A stretch of 32,000 bases of DNA. Source: Sinorhizobium meliloti (GTDB lineage: Bacteria; Pseudomonadota; Alphaproteobacteria; Rhizobiales; Rhizobiaceae). The translations under genes were made by a program, and so were the position numbers. Positions 8,642 through 17,131 of this stretch are shown one piece after another. The stretch covers positions 1,350,001 to 1,382,000 of the forward strand of contig NZ_JAGIOS010000003.1 of the NCBI RefSeq assembly GCF_017876815.1. Reading direction: 5' to 3'. Below the pieces are notes generated by a model, which saw only the letters and a program-made list of their open reading frames with translations, did no database searches and was not told where the DNA came from. Each line of letters starts with the position of its first letter. Position 1 is the stretch's first letter.

Positions 8642-9296
8642 TCATTCCCTCTGCACCCGCCCCAGGGGTAGCTGAACGCAACTCAAATGTCATCATGTCC
8701 AGGAGGTCGAACGCAGGTTCTCGAACTGATGAGCACACTCAAACTCTTCGCCATGCGTAGGGCCCGAAGAGGTCTCCTGATGCTGCTCGTTGCGTGGACC
8801 TGTGAGCGCCCCTTGAGATAGCCGCTATCGGCCGGTCTACCCGATCGTCTAAAATGAAGTCGAATATACCCGTTGCCGTAAGTCGCAGGAGGGTCAAAGG
8901 AGACCTCGAAGCGTCGGACACGCCGCGCGCTGTCCCAATTGGACTTCCAGCGATTTGGACCGCAACAATCGAACGCTCTGCAAGCTTGTTGAGGACGGTC
9001 TGAGCTAGTCCATTTTGAGTAGAAATGAACGGAGCGATAACTATCGGAACTGGGCGGTAATGACAATGGCGCTCGACGATTGTATTGATAAAACATAATT
9101 AGTACCAAGTATTGGTGACGGCGCTAGCCTGATCTGAACGTATTTAATTTCAATAACGAATTAATTACAACACTGGATCAATATCGTACTGAAGGATTCT
9201 TCCGAAATATTTAGGAAATGTTCTCTGTAGGAATTTTAACGCACTCAGACAGTGACACAGAACCCGGAATCTATAGGGAGTGCCAAGGAGGGACAA

Positions 9297-10064
9297 ATGT
9301 ACCCGACGAGATCGACCGACTTTGAAGATAGCAACAAGGTATTGCCGAAGAAAAGCAAGATTGTAATGCTCGCAAAGAACGACCTGTTCGCCGAATGTTT
9401 GACACAGGCGATCAGCGCGCGTTTTCACGATCAGGACATCGTAAGCCTTTCCGATGCCGACGATCTCCTGGACGGCAATCTTATCGACGTAAGCCTGGTC
9501 ATGCTCTACCGCCTGCCGGCGGCAGCATTCCCGTCGATCATCAGGACGATCCACGAGTTCCATCCCAAGGCCGCGATCGGCCTGATGGTGCAGAACGCGG
9601 ACGAGCTTGACCCGTCGATCGCGGGTTTTGTCGACGAAGGGTCGGTCAACGGCGTCCTGCCCCTGAATCTCAATCTCGACCTATGCCTTACCGCCATCGA
9701 TCTCTTGATGAAGGGCGGCGAGCATTTTCCCGCCGCTTTGCTTCGGCGCCCGGCGCCAAGAGGGCTGGCAGGGGGCGGCCTTGTCGCGCAAAAACAGGCG
9801 TCTTTGGAAGACATCGATCTAGAACGCAAGATCGACTTTGGCCAAGACCTCCTGACGATGCGCGAGACCCAGATTCTCGATCTCATATGCGTTGGCATGC
9901 AGAACAAGATCATCGCCGATCGTCTCGGGCTTTCCGAAAACACCGTCAAGGTGCATGTCCGCAACATCTACAAGAAGATGAACGTGCGCAACCGGACGGA
10001 GGCGGCGGCGCGCTACTTCCGGAGCGACGCTGATCACGCCTCGCTCCGCACACCATCGCACTAA
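9297..10064 (+). CDS. LuxR/FixJ-type transcriptional regulator with atypical receiver-like N-terminus
   Basis: ATG 9297 is preceded by AAGGAGG. The C-terminal HTH reads ETQILDLICVGMQNKIIADRLGLSENTVKVHVRNIYKKMNV. The N-terminal domain lacks the acidic pocket and phospho-Asp context (SLVMLY). Confidence 0.8.
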   Translation: MYPTRSTDFEDSNKVLPKKSKIVMLAKNDLFAECLTQAISARFHDQDIVSLSDADDLLDGNLIDVSLVMLYRLPAAAFPSIIRTIHEFHPKAAIGLMVQNADELDPSIAGFVDEGSVNGVLPLNLNLDLCLTAIDLLMKGGEHFPAALLRRPAPRGLAGGGLVAQKQASLEDIDLERKIDFGQDLLTMRETQILDLICVGMQNKIIADRLGLSENTVKVHVRNIYKKMNVRNRTEAAARYFRSDADHASLRTPSH

Positions 10065-10220: not shown

Positions 10221-10596
10221 TATAAGCCGATCCACCGGGACGGCCGCCTGCGCTATGGCCGAGCAGACCGACAATCTCGGAGACCCTCCTTGTCCGGCGC
10301 GCATAAGGGGAAGCAATCGTCGGCAGTCGGTCGGTGAACGTTTGTCGTTCACATTTCTGATGCGCGCACCGCCAGCGGCTCAACCGAAGCTTTACCGTTA
10401 CGGTTTTGCCCTGGACCGGCAGACCTTGGAGGCTTCGGTTGGACCAGCCATGCCGATATCGGGTCCGCCGTCCGCAATCAGGGCAGATGCCGAAAGCTGG
10501 CCCGGCAGCGGAAACAACCCAACTTTCGTCATCTGTGAGCGCGACACCCAGAACTTTTGCCCCTCGGCCGGGCGACCATTTCATTTTCGTTCGCAT
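10221..10596 (-). pseudogene. ISL3-family transposase, N-terminal ~125 aa fragment
   Basis: CPDCGRRTRYRHGWSNRSLQGLPVQGKTVTVKLRLSRWRCAHQKCERQTFTDRLP...RRTRRVSEIV fits the ISL3 zinc-finger/HTH N-terminus. The rest of the 216-aa ORF is Arg/Pro-rich read-through that overlaps the LuxR gene. Confidence 0.65.
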
Positions 10597-10662
10597 ACCC
10601 GCCTATAGCGGCATCATGTCTAACGGCGAGTGAACCACACAAATTGAGGAAGGCCCTAATTG

Positions 10663-10900
10663 AATGCCAAGCCACAGTCAGATCGATGCTCGGGCTCAGT
10701 CCGAGCGCCTATCAGGAGGATTGCGAGATCCTTGGACCGGAGAACGCCGCCGCGGTCACGGCCCGCATCCTCGAAAGGGCAGGGCACATCAACTCGGCCG
10801 GCGGTTACCTGCGCGATCTGACGCGCAAGGCTGAGTGCGGCAAGTTTTCGCGGGGCCGATGTTGATGGCCCTGATTGCGGGCGAAAGCGTTTGCCGGCGG
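10663..10900 (+). pseudogene. repC: repC (repABC plasmid replication initiator), C-terminal remnant with frameshift
   Basis: VRSMLGLSPSAYQEDCEILGPENAAAVTARILERAGHINSAGGYLRDLTRKAECGKFS matches the conserved RepC C-terminus. The expected GPMLMAL continuation is present but in another frame after about 10855. Confidence 0.65.
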
Positions 10901-11241
10901 CAGGGCGTGCTAATGGATCGCTCCCATATCCGTCCGAGGTCGGCGATGAATGGCGTCTTGAGGTGCACTCCGTAGATTGTTGGGGGTACTATCTGTGATC
11001 CCTGTAATATTCAGGGGTACTAATTTATGGTTGCAAAAAAAGTGGCGCTCTGTTAGTGTATTCAACGTGCAAGGCTCGCCCGTGAGTTGACGCTGAGGGC
11101 TCAGCAATCCGATAAAATGAACTCTCTCCAGGGAGTATAATCGACGGTCAAAGCACGTCTGCGATCTGCTGCATTCGCATGCAAATGAATCATATAGTGC
11201 CGTAAAATCTCTGCGCCACTCTAGGGATAGGAGACTGGTAA

Positions 11242-12018
11242 ATGACTTCTGCTGCTTTGAAATTCATATCAGTAACGAAACTTCCAACAGACGATGATCT
11301 TGGGGAGCTGCTGGACAAGCTGCGGGGTGCTGCTGGCTATTCCGCGCCGCTCCGTTCTCTGGCAGACAATACACAAACTGCCCAGGTTAACGCGGGAAGC
11401 CTGACTTCCTTCACCCAGAATCTTTCTGGCGAAAACAAAGCCGACGTGCAGAACTCAACCCTTTTTGCCCAGTTAGCATCAGACAGAGCTTTCGATCGTT
11501 ATAGGGCCCCCATGGACTGGTACAGAAACTATATCAATGTCCTGGGTCAGATTGGTTGGAACCAGCCAGCCTTTGCCTTTGATACCTACACATCTGGCGG
11601 TTCCACGGTAAAGCTCGACGAGGCCGTTCTTGGTATTCTCGCAGCGATTGCAACCGGAGACGAAGTCGCCATGGTGGCCGCTACGATGGAGGGGCTTAAA
11701 GGTCTTAGCGACGATTCGAAGCAAATGACTATTTGGGATGCAAAGTCCAGTGACGGCAACAACGGAAATTTTCAGATATTCCCCGTTGACGCGCTACCCA
11801 ACGGTGACGTTGTGATGGTGCTTGATGGGATGCAGTTTAATGCATCCACTAGCCATGGCCGGTTCTTGTGGTGGACATGGGAGTCTACGAGCATCCGCAT
11901 ACAGCGAGCTGCTAACAAATTTGTGCTCAACGAAAGCGTCTATTCACAAGTTCGGCAGGCCATTATCGATAAACTCGGCGAGCGCGCCCAGCAGCTGGTC
12001 GCCGACATTCCAATTTAA
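11242..12018 (+). CDS. hypothetical protein, paralogue A of orphan cassette (258 aa)
   Basis: ATG is preceded by AGGAGA. The frame is clean with no Cys, signal peptide or TM segment. It shares collinear blocks with the next gene: QVNAGSL/QINEGAL, NSTLFAQLASDRAF...DWYRNY..LGQIGW versus NSLLFAQLAADKQF...DWQRTF..LSVMGW, and LNESVYSQVRQAIIDKLG versus LNESIYSKVRNSVIAKLG. Confidence 0.75.
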   Translation: MTSAALKFISVTKLPTDDDLGELLDKLRGAAGYSAPLRSLADNTQTAQVNAGSLTSFTQNLSGENKADVQNSTLFAQLASDRAFDRYRAPMDWYRNYINVLGQIGWNQPAFAFDTYTSGGSTVKLDEAVLGILAAIATGDEVAMVAATMEGLKGLSDDSKQMTIWDAKSSDGNNGNFQIFPVDALPNGDVVMVLDGMQFNASTSHGRFLWWTWESTSIRIQRAANKFVLNESVYSQVRQAIIDKLGERAQQLVADIPI

Positions 12019-12169
12019 CGCCAGGCGCAGACTCAACGTCGTGACCGTCAAAGATGCACTGCCTTTGCATCCGGGACGGCCACGACGATCGTTGCGTGAA
12101 CCGTCGTCCCACCTGGGTCCTTTGCAAGTCTGTGCCGAGAGTGCCGCTTGCGTGACGCCCAAATCAAGC

Positions 12170-12910
12170 ATGAGGCTTATGATGTCCGTACATTTCGATG
12201 CGATCACGCTCCCTGAGCTTTCCGCGCGGGAGCGCGCACTTGAGACCGCTTCACCACCCGAGACTACCCAGTTCTCACTGGTAGGAACGGCTTCAGCGCA
12301 GATTAATGAAGGAGCACTGTTGGCTTTCGACAGCGCTCTTCCAAAGCAAATGATCGATGATATCAGCAACTCACTTCTCTTCGCACAGCTGGCTGCTGAC
12401 AAACAGTTCAACAGGCATACAGCGACGGGCGATTGGCAAAGGACTTTCTTCGGCACGCTTTCAGTGATGGGATGGATAACTGGCAGCTTGAGCGAAAGAA
12501 CTGAAGTTGCGGCATCACCGGTCGACTGGGCGGAGCTGATTACATCGTACATGCCGGAAAATGTGGATCAACTCGTGCTCTCCAGCATCGCGGCATCTCA
12601 ACAGCTGCCCACCACAAGCAGTGCAATCCGCATATGGAGCAATGCAGCCTTGGTTGGTGACGAAGGGGTCGTCATTGTCGGGCCGAGTTACATTTCTGGC
12701 GACAACCCAAATATGGCAATCGCACTTCTAAAGTTCACATTTGAGAAAGAAGTGGCAGGTTTTTTAAGGTGGGACGTCAACTTCAACATCACGACATCGA
12801 TCGTGACCATGGAACTGAACGAGAGCATTTACTCGAAAGTGCGAAACTCGGTCATAGCGAAACTTGGCAATCGTCCGAAATACCTAATCGCTAGTGTGCC
12901 GATGAAGTGA
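12170..12910 (+). CDS. hypothetical protein, paralogue B of orphan cassette (~243-246 aa)
   Basis: It is collinear with paralogue A over its whole length. The start is ambiguous: ATG at 12170, 12179 or 12182, with GAGG at 12172-12175 favouring 12179 or 12182. The longer track ORF from 11822 overlaps gene A and is Arg/Pro-rich. Confidence 0.7.
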   Translation: MRLMMSVHFDAITLPELSARERALETASPPETTQFSLVGTASAQINEGALLAFDSALPKQMIDDISNSLLFAQLAADKQFNRHTATGDWQRTFFGTLSVMGWITGSLSERTEVAASPVDWAELITSYMPENVDQLVLSSIAASQQLPTTSSAIRIWSNAALVGDEGVVIVGPSYISGDNPNMAIALLKFTFEKEVAGFLRWDVNFNITTSIVTMELNESIYSKVRNSVIAKLGNRPKYLIASVPMK

Positions 12911-12923
12911 AGGGGACTCCAAA

Positions 12924-13492
12924 ATGCCACATGTGACGGATGCTAACGTTCCACCTATAACGCAATCGGATTGCTGCAGATTCGCTTCGGCAGTCTCGGG
13001 GCATGGGGAACCGCGTTACTCATTGACGAGCGATGTCTGTTGACGTGCGCTCACAACGTATTTTCTAAGGGGCAGGCCGCAGTGTCGGCCAGCTTTCACC
13101 GCGCCTACAATTCGGAGATGCCGCCCGTGACGACCGGAGTTGAGGTGGATTGCGCTTTCATCAAGCGCGTGTTCAAGGTAGGTCATGACAGAACCTGGGA
13201 CATTGCCGTCCTGCGACTGGCCGAGCCGATCTACAAAGTCCAACCGCTCCGACTTGGAGTGGTCACAGAACATCAGCAGCCTGACCCTAATTTGACTGTC
13301 GCCGGTTATCCTGGCAGCAGACATTATCGGATGTGGGAGGAACAGGAACTGGTTAGAGGTGTCGCTTGGCAGATAAATGTGAGAATGCGGCTGTTTCAGG
13401 CAGGTTTGGCATTTAAAGATGAGAATCCGAGCGACGGGATTGTCAAAACAACTGCAATTGCGAAGACGCCACCGATCGGCATGTACGGGTGA
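12924..13492 (+). pseudogene. trypsin-fold (S1, V8-like) serine protease, apparently frameshifted at the 5' end and lacking the Ser motif
   Basis: Motifs are YNAIGLLQIRFG...GTALLIDERCLLTCAHNV (His), WDIAVLRL (Asp) and VAGYPGSRHYRMWE. A good RBS plus ATG at 12924 is in a different frame from the domain (open from 12947, first start TTG 12971). No GxSGxP motif lies before the stop at 13490-13492 in any frame. Confidence 0.6.
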
Positions 13493-13620
13493 TGATCTCG
13501 TCGATAGTGCTGCTGAATCGCACTTGGTTCTGACCCATCATTTGGCCGCGCAGCATTTGCAGCATCTCCGGTCCTGCCCGCTCGACGAGCCGCTGAGGGC
13601 TGCCAAGTAGAGGTTTCATT

Positions 13621-14211
13621 ATGTTCGATCCTCGCGAGAAAATAGCGCTCTTTATCGACGGCGCCAATCTTTTCGCCGCATCCAAAAGCCTGGGCTTCGA
13701 CATCGATTATTGCAAACTGCTCCAGGCTTTTCGCAACCGCGCCTACCTCTTGCGGGCCTATTATTACACGGCCATCATCGAAGACCTGGAATTCTCCTCA
13801 ATTCGGCCGCTGATCGACTGGCTTGATTACAACGGCTACACCGTGGTCACCAAACCAGCCAAGGAATTTACCGACGCCCAAGGCCGACGCAAGATCAAGG
13901 GAAACATGGACATCGAACTGGCAATCGATGCCATGGAGCAATCGCGAACCGCCGATCATCTCGTGATCTTTTCGGGCGATGGTGATTTCACCACACTCGT
14001 CGAAACTCTGCAGCGCAAGGGGCGCAAGGTTTCCGTGGTCTCGACCATGTCAACACAGCCGCCGATGATCGCTGACGAGTTGCGCAGACAAGCGGATCAT
14101 TTCATTGATCTGGCTTCGCTTCGCAGTGAGATTGACCGCCATCCGCGAGACCATTTGACTCGTCCAGCCGCTCCGGTTTCAGGTGAGGTCGGCGTCGACG
14201 CTGGCGCTTGA
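13621..14211 (+). CDS. NYN-domain (LabA/DUF88-like) protein
   Basis: IALFIDGANLFAASKSLGFDIDY...YYYTA...KGNMDIELAIDAM...LVIFSGDGDFTTLVETLQRKGRKVSVVS is the conserved NYN/LabA pattern. Confidence 0.85.
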   Translation: MFDPREKIALFIDGANLFAASKSLGFDIDYCKLLQAFRNRAYLLRAYYYTAIIEDLEFSSIRPLIDWLDYNGYTVVTKPAKEFTDAQGRRKIKGNMDIELAIDAMEQSRTADHLVIFSGDGDFTTLVETLQRKGRKVSVVSTMSTQPPMIADELRRQADHFIDLASLRSEIDRHPRDHLTRPAAPVSGEVGVDAGA

Positions 14212-14990: not shown

Positions 14991-17131
14991 ATGCTGATCT
15001 CCGCCAGCCCTACACGTTCTTCGAATCCTTTGATCATTCTTGCTGGCGGGAGCTATGAGGAAGCCTCGTCGGTCGCCCGCAGCCTTCGGGAAATCGGGTA
15101 TTCGTGCGTTTGCTCTCCAGACTACCGGACCTTTGAGCAACATGCGCGCCTGGTAAAGCCGGACCTCCTATTGCTGGATAGCGATATCCATGGCGAATTC
15201 TTGAGAGATGCAAAACGTTGGGAGGAGTTTCAATCTGTTCCAATGATCCATCTCGTTTCGAGTGCCGCCGAGAGAGAGAGAACGCCTTTGCCGCGGGTGC
15301 GGTGGACTGCGTTGTCAAACCTGTGTTGACAGAAGAACTGCTGGCACGTGTAAAAGGCCGTCTCGACCTGCAGCAGGCGCAGAAACAGCTTGACCAGCGC
15401 AACATGCAATTCGCCACAACCCTCGAAAATATCGGCCAGGGGGTCTGCTTTTTCGACGCGGACCAGCGGCTGATTCTATCAAATCGGCGGTATGCGGAGG
15501 TATACGGCCTACCACCGGAGATGATCAAGCCGGGCATGACTTTAAGCGAGATCACCGAACTGCGCTATGCGGTCGGTGCCTGCCCGGTCGTGCCGCATGA
15601 TGAATATCTGGCCTGGTGCGATGCGATCAATTCCAAGTCATCCCCGCAAGATTGGTCGATGGAGCTGAAGTCGGGCAAGGCCATTCGCGTCCATCACGAG
15701 AGGACATCCGACGGCGGATGGGTTTCCACGCACGAGGATATTACCGAGCACCGAAACGCCGAACGGCAGATAGCGCGTCTGGCGCTGCATGATCCGTTGA
15801 CCGACTTGCCCAACCGCGCCGCGTTGAAGCAGAAACTCGATACACTGCTCGAGCAGCACCAAAAGCAAGGCACCCAGTTTGCGGTCCTGTGCCTCGACCT
15901 CGACCGCTTCAAGGAGGTCAATGACCTCTTCGGTCACCATGTCGGGGATCAAGTTTTGTGCCTGGCTGCCAAACGCCTTTGCGCAACTGCGGTGGGTGCA
16001 TTCGTCGCGCGCCTGGGTGGCGACGAATTCATGGTCTTGGCAGAAGCTGACGCGAGCTACGCGGCACAGCTTGCCGACCTGATCATCACCATTCTGAGCG
16101 AGGACGCCGAAATCGAGGGCACCCGGATCCGCATGGGTACGAGCCTTGGCGTAGCAATCTTCCCCGCCGACGGGGACAACGCCGCCGAACTCATGGGCAA
16201 TGCCGACGCAGCTCTCTATCGTGCGAAGGCTGACGGACGCGGTACGGCCCGTTTCTTCGAACCGCAAATGGATAAATGGCTACGCGAGCGGCGAGCACTG
16301 CAACGAGATCTGCAGGCTGCGATTTCTCAGCAGCAGCTGTCTATTGTTTATCAGCCACAGGCTGACATCGGCGGCGATGTCATTGGCTTCGAAGCACTGC
16401 TGCGGTGGAACCATCCGACCCGTGGCAATATCCCGCCTTCAGTCTTCATTCCGATCGCCGAAGAGAGCAGTTTGATGATCGAGATCGGCGAGTGGGTGCT
16501 ACGAGAGGCCTGCCGAGAGGCAGCTGCTTGGCCACGGAAGCTTTCGGTTGCCGTCAACCTCTCTCCGGTGCAATTCAAACACGGCGATCTCGATAGGCTC
16601 GTAAAGTCAGTTCTGATCGAAACGGGACTTGAGCCAGAACGGTTGGAGCTCGAGATCACAGAAGGCGTTTTGATCGACGACCTGGAACGTGCGATCTCGA
16701 CGCTGGGGCATCTGAAGGCGCTGGGTGTGCGGATCGCAATGGACGATTTCGGGACCGGCTATTCCTCGCTTTCGTATCTGCAATCCTTTCCGTTTGACAA
16801 AATCAAGATCGACCAGTCGTTTGTCCGCAACATCGGGCTTTCCCAATCTTCAGCAATCATCCGAGCCGTAATCGGACTTGGGCGCGGCCTCGATCTGCCC
16901 ATCATCGCTGAAGGCGTGGAATCGACGGATCAGCTTGCATTCCTGACCCGCGAGAGCTGCGATCAGGTACAAGGTTATCTTGTGGGCCGGCCCCGCCCGA
17001 TTTCGGACTATGCCAAATATGTGGGCCGCGCAGAGGACGTCGAGCAGCTTGCGCGCGTCCGGCCGGCGATCTCGGCCCGGCAAGAGCAAAGCCATGGTGC
17101 CGATTCCAGGCAAAACAGCGGCATTGGCTGA
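14991..17131 (+). pseudogene. REC-PAS-GGDEF-EAL c-di-GMP protein split by a frameshift in a (GA)6 tract
   Basis: AGGGAG plus ATG at 14991. The receiver-like domain (KPDLLLLDSD...PMIHLVSSAAE) continues in the frame of ORF 15218-17131 (NAFAAGAVDCVVKP...). Downstream are a PAS region, GGDEF (RLGGDEFMVL) and EAL (GFEALLRW, DDFGTGYSSLSYL, QGYLVGRP). Confidence 0.85.
15270..15281. repeat. (GA)6 dinucleotide tract at the frameshift point
   Basis: Read directly: ccgGAGAGAGAGAGAacgcc. Removing one GA unit fuses the REC frame to the PAS-GGDEF-EAL frame (SSAAERENAFAAGAVD). Confidence 0.95.

Follow-up and report, generated by a model that had tools for sequence, protein, structure and literature searches.

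A widespread protein family with a predicted Cyt/Evf-like fold, present as a tandem pair next to a decayed protease gene in Sinorhizobium meliloti

What do two tandem genes of Sinorhizobium meliloti, here called A and B, encode, and are their products controlled by the protease whose sequence begins directly downstream? Both genes lie in the window, that is, the whole stretch of 32,000 nucleotides analysed here (contig NZ_JAGIOS010000003.1, positions 1,350,001 to 1,382,000 of the forward strand), for which a first-pass annotation had proposed a protease-processed effector pair. The proposal is partly supported: members of the family recur next to proteases, EAD1 adaptor domains and STAND nucleoside triphosphatases (NTPases), but the protease of the window is dead, and about three quarters of the family loci show no adjacent one. 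Our preferred reading, to which we give about an even chance, is that of a latent death effector which targets membranes and is licensed when its N-terminal linker is cut by a protease. The features on which the argument depends are the following.

11229-11233, plus strand: AGGAG, a Shine-Dalgarno-like motif 8 nucleotides 5' of the gene A start, read from the sequence
11242-12018, plus strand: gene A, 258 residues, an intact open reading frame; conserved A-type member of an unnamed family, predicted Cyt/Evf-like fold
11242-11376, plus strand: N-terminal segment of A, residues 1-45, an F[IV]....LP island and then a linker, delimited by entropy, model confidence and alignments
12170-12910, plus strand: gene B, 246 residues, fast-evolving B-type paralogue
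12170-12292, plus strand: N-terminal segment of B, counterpart of A residues 1-45 by alignment, an ITLPEL island and a linker
12924-13492, plus strand: remnant (pseudogene) of a V8/glutamyl-endopeptidase-like S1 serine protease, with the domain in the open reading frame 12971-13492

Both genes are intact, lie on the same strand and have plausible ribosome-binding sites. The NCBI start of gene B is the ATG at 12170; an alternative ATG at 12182 (242 residues) follows GAGG at 12172-12175 and corresponds to the start called in S. medicae. The two proteins are 29% identical over 215 residues (BLASTP, E=6e-25) and share three motif blocks, AQ[VI]N.G.L..F, NS.LFAQLA.D..F.R.....DW.R.....L...GW and LNES[VI]YS.VR...I.KLG.R...L.A..P; by this alignment they are true paralogues and an old pair. 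Both are alpha/beta proteins of about 28 kDa with no catalytic motif, and by eye neither has a signal peptide or a transmembrane segment. Scans of A and B against Pfam, NCBIfam and PADLOC gave no match at E<=1, save one sub-threshold Pfam match of B (dATP-dGTP_PPHyd, E 0.12, with 13.1 bits where the cutoff is 23), and an hmmsearch of PDB sequences with the family profile gave none at E<=10. A scan of 10850-13750 for promoters and terminators found nothing beyond shuffled expectation. The first-pass annotation had read most of this from the letters (clean open reading frames, about 30% identity by eye, the three blocks, no signal peptide, transmembrane segment or placeable motif), and all of it held; the profile comparison that it suggested, with the Trypco and gasdermin models included, likewise yielded no confident match to any characterised family. 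It had also called the proteins unassignable, which is correct for their sequences but not for their structures, as both models point to the fold of the Cyt/Evf/volvatoxin cytolysins.

The AlphaFold2 models, built on alignments of homologues, were confident for both A (predicted local distance difference test, pLDDT, 87; predicted TM-score, pTM, 0.89) and B (pLDDT 92, pTM 0.90). In the Foldseek comparison with PDB (top 50 matches), the best 13 matches of A were all Evf (2w3y), Cyt1Aa (6t14, 6t1a and 3ron, covering the protoxin and toxin forms), Cyt2Aa (1cby), Cyt2Ba (2rci) or volvatoxin A2 (1vcy, 1pp0), with E from 4e-5 to 1e-2, probability 0.98-1.0 and TM-scores of 0.28-0.47. For B, the top three matches were Evf and the Cyt1Aa protoxin, and for A and B together the probability of the matches to this fold was 0.97-1.0. 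Not a single gasdermin chain was among the top 50 matches of A or B. Thus, the structural check proposed in the first-pass annotation placed the same fold class first on two independent models, the agreement being moderate (TM-score below 0.5).

The elements of A follow in the order beta-hairpin, helix hairpin, strands, second helix pair, three long strands, two helices and terminal strand, and Cyt1Aa has a mixed sheet flanked by two helix hairpins (PMC7052140). The order in A parallels this architecture. The Cyt/volvatoxin A2/Evf group, the sole consistent structural match of A and B, resembles them in having a single alpha/beta domain of about 250 residues, in the order of helix hairpins and long strands, and in the lack of a signal peptide. 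In contrast, neither sequence nor profile comparison detects any similarity of A and B to the Cyt family, the TM-scores are only 0.34-0.47 and, unlike Cyt1Aa, the two proteins have no C-terminal extension. Neither A nor B contains a cysteine, whereas Cyt1Aa has a disulfide; Evf is S-palmitoylated on a cysteine. We rebuilt a Cyt family alignment (Cyt1Aa and five homologues) from Bacillus and Streptomyces plasmid records, and hhalign of the A+B family against it returned a probability of 0.03; therefore we claim only a resemblance of folds. The Pfam family of Cyt delta-endotoxins (Bac_thur_toxin, PF01338) had no match at E<=1 for A or B either. We accordingly describe A and B as having a predicted Cyt/Evf-like fold, without assigning them to the Cyt family. 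A structural search of BFVD gave only weak giant-virus matches, with TM-scores of at most 0.32 normalised to the query.

Proteases remove 37 N-terminal and 7 C-terminal residues of Cyt1Aa, and its N-terminal propeptide contributes to self-inhibition (PMC7052140). A and B end 2-3 residues past the last core strand, and the only segment that looks dispensable is N-terminal. In A, the column entropy is 2-3.3 bits at residues 1-45 and 0.4-1.6 bits from residue 46; the first part comprises the F[IV]....LP island and then a hypervariable linker modelled with low confidence (pLDDT at residues 31-40, 64 in A and 62 in B), and the core is sharply conserved from residue 46. Distant homologues align to A only from about residue 40. 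Longer family members carry unrelated N-terminal extensions ahead of the same F[IV]....LP island, and in these extensions Pfam finds no domain other than one Amidase_2. Residues 1-45 of A are a candidate pro-segment with its cleavage region, similar in position to the N-terminal segment ahead of the Cyt1Aa core, which is the propeptide removed by proteases.

How large is the family, and is the pairing of A and B a general property? Gene A has 65 close homologues (39-88% identity), all unnamed, in Alpha- and Gammaproteobacteria, Actinobacteria and Cyanobacteria. When 1.84 billion representatives were searched by profile, 1,824 clusters (50% identity) were matched at E<=1e-3 and 1,227 at E<=1e-10; in phage genomes we found no homologue. 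For the locus census we retained 80 genome loci and four from exact look-up, representing many phyla, with open reading frames called mechanically. About half of the loci contain a single gene; there are also tandem pairs (n = 29), triplets (n = 2) and arrays (n = 5). In pairs the order is always A and then B; the mean identity of orthologues at the same 29 loci is 49.5% for A-type and 32.0% for B-type proteins, in 98% of the comparisons between loci A is the better conserved of the two, and single-copy genes score as A-type. By these measures A is the conserved core of the family, and B is a derived, faster-evolving partner.

The arrays have five to six members (L051 2092-6081, L053 4041-8220, L056 2684-6893, L058 4009-8262 and L062 2663-6280), each consisting of one A-type gene and four to five extremely divergent paralogues, and come from alpha- and betaproteobacterial loci. 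In four of these arrays a conserved open reading frame of about 172 residues comes next, whose representative in L051 has no Pfam match; the L056 array is preceded by a subtilase gene, the L053 array by a gene for an adenylate-cyclase-AAA_16 (STAND-like) protein. In a 517-residue protein, P0077, the A-family profile matches two stretches of the same polypeptide; it is possibly a naturally fused A-A or A-B protein, as would fit joint working of both proteins.

A protease gene is the immediate same-strand neighbour in about 20 of 82 loci, and six kinds are represented, namely three of trypsin (V8-like, NAL1-like and EAD1-fused) besides subtilase, caspase/CHAT and metzincin. A jackhmmer search started from the protease of the window was limited to its own clade, hence the other protease families were sought, and found, by Pfam scans of the neighbour sets. 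Relative to the family genes, they are placed as follows.

V8/glutamyl-endopeptidase-like trypsin clade: downstream, in the window (dead), L001, L003, L006, L012 and L031
NAL1/S64-like trypsins: downstream, in L026, L040, L048 and L083
EAD1-Trypsin_2 fusions: downstream, in L071 and L072
Subtilases: downstream, in L049 and L066
Subtilase: upstream, in L056
Caspase (C14): downstream, in L073
Amidase_2-CHAT protein: upstream, in L070
Metzincins (HELGHxLGFRH): 15-52 nucleotides upstream, in L059, L060 and L064

The stop and start codons of the protease and A/B genes often overlap, and at a background of 6%, which is assumed and not measured, the adjacency has a binomial P of about 1e-6. In the five loci with downstream V8-like proteases other than the window, the effector is in an operon with a protease whose His and GxSGx motifs are intact. 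In L071 and L072, the A-type gene is followed by EAD1-Trypsin_2 and then by a STAND NTPase (AAA_16/NACHT/NB-ARC, with EAD11 in L072), and L003 has a divergent NB-ARC STAND gene. EAD adaptors and STAND NTPases with trypsin or caspase effectors define NTP-dependent conflict systems (Kaur et al., PMC7159879); coupling to a sensor NTPase through adaptor domains is seen at the family level, in L071 and L072, and is absent from the window. The recurrent adjacency of six kinds of proteases, EAD1 and STAND reads, at the level of gene order, as the signature of protease-gated conflict effectors. The idea that homologues might never co-occur with a protease, which would make the adjacency accidental, is therefore not borne out, the proteases recurring at about 20 of 82 loci; the remaining three quarters showed no adjacent protease. 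Clustering of the neighbours by BLAST revealed no universally conserved partner gene.

The same neighbourhoods allow one to consider A and B as harmless lipid or ligand binders with a housekeeping or storage function, the adjacent proteases being incidental. Most loci indeed have unrelated neighbours (TetR regulators, transporters, NUDIX), the TM-scores to Cyt toxins are below 0.5, and START/Bet v1-like ligand binders appear in the weak tails of the Foldseek results. However, chance hardly accounts for six kinds of proteases, often with an overlap of stop and start codons, in addition to EAD1 and STAND, and a patchy horizontal spread in which identity across phyla is 55-80% is typical of conflict genes of the accessory kind and not of housekeeping genes; we consider this explanation very improbable.

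Several neighbourhoods have features of their own. In L070 (440-2584), an Amidase_2 (PGRP-like) peptidoglycan-amidase domain is fused to the CHAT protease directly upstream of the A-type gene, and in the homologue P0184 the same kind of amidase domain is fused to the N-terminus of the A-family domain; these domains may be a sensor or targeting module. In L096 (1079-7379 of a 77 kb Curtobacterium plasmid, NZ_CP066342.1), an A+B pair lies near DUF4365 and PDDEXK nuclease genes and a recombinase, in what looks like a defence island.

In the window, the first-pass annotation had placed a same-strand S1/V8-like protease 14 nucleotides downstream of gene B. There is an ATG at 12924, 14 nucleotides past the stop codon of B, and a V8-like domain follows, but this ATG is out of the protease frame, a frameshift lies near 12945, and the catalytic serine is lacking. 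In the open reading frame 12971-13492, the Pfam match to Trypsin_2 (E=3e-6) is confined to the N-terminal part of the profile, ~95 of its 144 positions; the motifs of His (TCAHNVF) and of Asp (WDIAVLRL) are retained, and no GxSGx serine motif is present in any frame, so that a complete His-Asp-Ser triad does not occur in one reading frame. Intact relatives (270-280 residues), every one of which has TAAHN and G[EQA]SG and which match glutamyl endopeptidases in PDB, align to the remnant only at their residues ~55-205 (tblastn). The similarity ends at about 13363, and the missing catalytic half was not found in other frames or downstream (12900-13640). In S. medicae, the remnant has additional deletions or indels and stops, and the homology ends at the equivalent of about 13286. 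Judged by these lesions, the protease of the window is a decaying pseudogene and not an intact gene, hence the local A-B cassette cannot run as a protease-processed pair with a protease of its own.

The effector genes beside it have fared differently. Between S. meliloti and S. medicae, gene A has a ratio of nonsynonymous to synonymous substitution rates (dN/dS) of 0.10 and gene B one of 0.32, values indicating that both are maintained in Sinorhizobium under purifying selection. Thus, given the indels in the protease, the protease decays and A and B are kept; the local cassette would then be triggered by something else or have a protease-independent role.

This pattern raises the alternative that A and B form a self-contained, protease-independent module, where B would inhibit A (as in a toxin/antitoxin system), or sense a trigger and free A, or join A in a hetero-oligomeric membrane complex, with proteases optional in some lineages. 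The selection on A and B that outlasts the protease would fit it, as would the fixed A-then-B order, the stronger conservation of A and the many pairs that have no protease (L002, L005, L009, L087 and the S. medicae locus L085). On the other hand, pairs are also found with proteases (L001, L003, L006, L012, L031, L049, L060 and L066), and a protease commonly accompanies a lone A-type gene that has no B (L026, L040, L048, L083 and L070-L073), hence B is not required for the basic function of the family. We consider this module unlikely.

Returning to the latent effector licensed by proteolysis, we infer a membrane activity, an N-terminal pro-segment with its cleavage site, a cell-suicide role and a role for B, which would be combined in the following way. 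In the latent, cytoplasmic pro-form, the F[IV]....LP element would hold the core inactive via the disordered hypervariable linker. The protease encoded next door would cut the linker, in some lineages being recruited through the EAD1 adaptor to a STAND NTPase sensor. The freed core would then bind and disrupt the cell's own inner membrane, resulting in cell death by an abortive-infection or conflict logic, for which bacterial gasdermin, Pepco and EACC1 are analogues. A would be the conserved executioner, and B a derived, faster-evolving co-effector or regulator.

Several points weigh against this scheme. The fold match is moderate, and the null hhalign result leaves homology to Cyt toxins unproven. 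About 75% of the loci had no adjacent protease in the scan, and numerous A+B pairs of Enterobacterales, Burkholderia and Nostoc are among these; the calling of reading frames in the census was mechanical, and the background frequency of proteases was assumed. A and B persist beside a dead local protease, which suggests that proteolysis by a cognate neighbour is not obligatory. Finally, the window is an accessory, insertion sequence (IS)-rich region of a symbiosis megaplasmid with no recognisable defence island.

Among the closest known systems are bacterial gasdermins (bGSDMs), in which, as in part of the loci here, an effector of about 250 residues directly adjoins trypsin-like, subtilase or caspase-like proteases and is patchily distributed across phyla; the CARD/NLR-like type II bGSDM systems (PMC10312443) are similar to L071 and L072 in combining an effector, an adaptor-fused trypsin and a STAND-type ATPase. 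Unlike bGSDMs, A and B have neither a C-terminal inhibitory tail nor an N-terminal cysteine, the family has a conserved pair of A and B paralogues, and a protease is adjacent in about a quarter of the loci, compared to "almost always" for bGSDMs (PMC10312443). Gasdermin identity of A and B was rejected, as there was no PADLOC match at E<=1, no gasdermin among the top 50 fold matches and no C-terminal tail; the PADLOC hidden Markov models and the fold search bear out the earlier impression that the two proteins do not resemble gasdermins.

Pepco (Trypco1/2) and EACC1 (PMC12642450) are protease-activated pore-forming propeptides, i.e. they follow the logic proposed here for A and B, but they are small, EACC1 being cut into 7.1 and 5.7 kDa fragments (PMC12642450), whereas A and B are about 28 kDa. 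We rejected Trypco/EACC1 identity, given the lack of a Pfam match at E<=1 and the lengths of 258 and 246 residues against about 100-130 (PMC12642450). Protease-nuclease pairs and trypsin-MBL modules (PMC12799240; bioRxiv 10.1101/2025.09.03.673762) are likewise modular combinations of a pro-effector and a protease, acquired repeatedly by different systems; their effectors, however, are enzymes, namely nuclease zymogens, and A and B have a toxin-like fold and no catalytic motif.

A 2025 survey (Evans 2025, PMC12642450) covers ten protease-associated effector families, namely MBL, alpha/beta-hydrolase, Pepco/Trypco, EACC1, PCaspase, bGSDM, CATASP, MPE, CalpT and Csx30, and no Cyt-like protein of about 250 residues is among them. 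Effector terms for Cyt-like proteins, gasdermin or endotoxin are absent from Kaur 2020, and all searched terms are absent from Kaur 2021; the effectors reported to replace gasdermin in Wein 2023 are an endonuclease and a phospholipase. We found no paper tying Cyt-like proteins to phage defence, gasdermin or STAND systems. In agreement with the initial suspicion, the family of effectors appears to be undescribed, and so do its fold and the pairing of A with B, the logic of protease and effector being already known.

In prokaryotic immunity, death effectors gated by proteases (gasdermin, Pepco, EACC1, MBL nucleases) are turning out to be a dominant logic. If the proposed scheme is true, it would add a widespread effector with a different membrane-attacking fold, Cyt-type toxins would gain an evolutionary context inside bacterial immunity, and Sinorhizobium would be a natural case of an effector pair outliving its protease, which bears on the taming or repurposing of lethal modules. 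The degenerate local instance is of lower value as a working example, and it prompts one to ask which function A and B have once the protease is gone. A broader conjecture, which we find doubtful, is that the Cyt fold is an ancient bacterial cell-suicide executioner like gasdermin, with a family of ~1,800 clusters whose cytoplasmic Cyt/Evf-like pro-toxins would be licensed by proteases and STAND sensors that can replace one another; insecticidal Cyt, fungal volvatoxin and Erwinia Evf would be exapted outward-facing offshoots, and the A/B heteropair would be a second, protease-independent gating layer, which would explain the retention of A and B in Sinorhizobium after the loss of the protease.

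Could the target be outside the cell? Megaplasmids and accessory plasmids of many S. meliloti strains match the window at 100% identity, and there the three genes are annotated as [quoted passage not shown]. The A-B cassette occurs at 100% identity both on megaplasmids and on accessory plasmids of 110-350 kb, hence it moves within the genus. Its location on symbiosis and accessory plasmids of a plant symbiont would suit outward-directed toxins or host-interaction factors that act on eukaryotic or competitor membranes, are freed by lysis or an unknown route and are matured by the neighbouring proteases. The significant structural matches are all anti-eukaryote cytolysins or a gut-persistence virulence factor (Evf, Drosophila gut), Cyt toxins too lack a signal peptide and are proteolytically activated, members are often found in Endozoicomonas, a genus of animal symbionts, and one homologue (P0184) carries the peptidoglycan amidase domain. 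The opposite is suggested by EAD1 fusions and STAND NTPases in the same operons, which are hallmarks of intracellular conflict (PMC7159879), by the absence of recurring secretion-system genes nearby, by partner proteases with no evident secretion signals (no formal test being made), and by occurrence in free-living soil and water bacteria of many phyla, a spread that tracks no host. We hold an outward role to be rather improbable. The latent effector differs from Cyt toxins, its context being proteases, EAD1 and STAND and not crystal-toxin plasmids, and its presumed target being the membrane of the producer.

The cassette is preceded by remnants of mobile elements, as had been noted from the letters (IS and plasmid debris).

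9946-10596, minus strand: ISL3 transposase fragment (Pfam), Zn-ribbon only, overlapping the RepC fragment, just 5' of A
10557-10865, plus strand: RepC C-terminal fragment (Pfam)

The A-B pair of S. medicae is likewise flanked by several IS elements. On the other side, 129 nucleotides past the protease remnant, lies a gene with an NYN/LabA-like nuclease domain (13621-14211, plus strand; Pfam NYN E=2e-37, PADLOC NYN E=4e-20); in S. medicae its linkage to A-B is absent, and therefore it is probably unrelated to the cassette. A LuxR/GerE-type regulator (9252-10064, plus strand) is annotated as a response regulator, Pfam recognising only its C-terminal helix-turn-helix; the N-terminal ~190 residues match no Pfam receiver model. 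A long open reading frame at 15218-17131 (plus strand), with an uncertain start and overlapping upstream reading frames, has a translation that reads as a PAS-GGDEF-EAL signalling protein. Other Sinorhizobium plasmids (NC_013545.1 57359-57715, NZ_CP021215.1, CP140961.1 and others; H66-H76) carry a partial second A-type gene, covering only the first 74 to ~150 residues at 45-52% identity, and these scattered fragments suggest repeated acquisition and decay of the family in Sinorhizobium.

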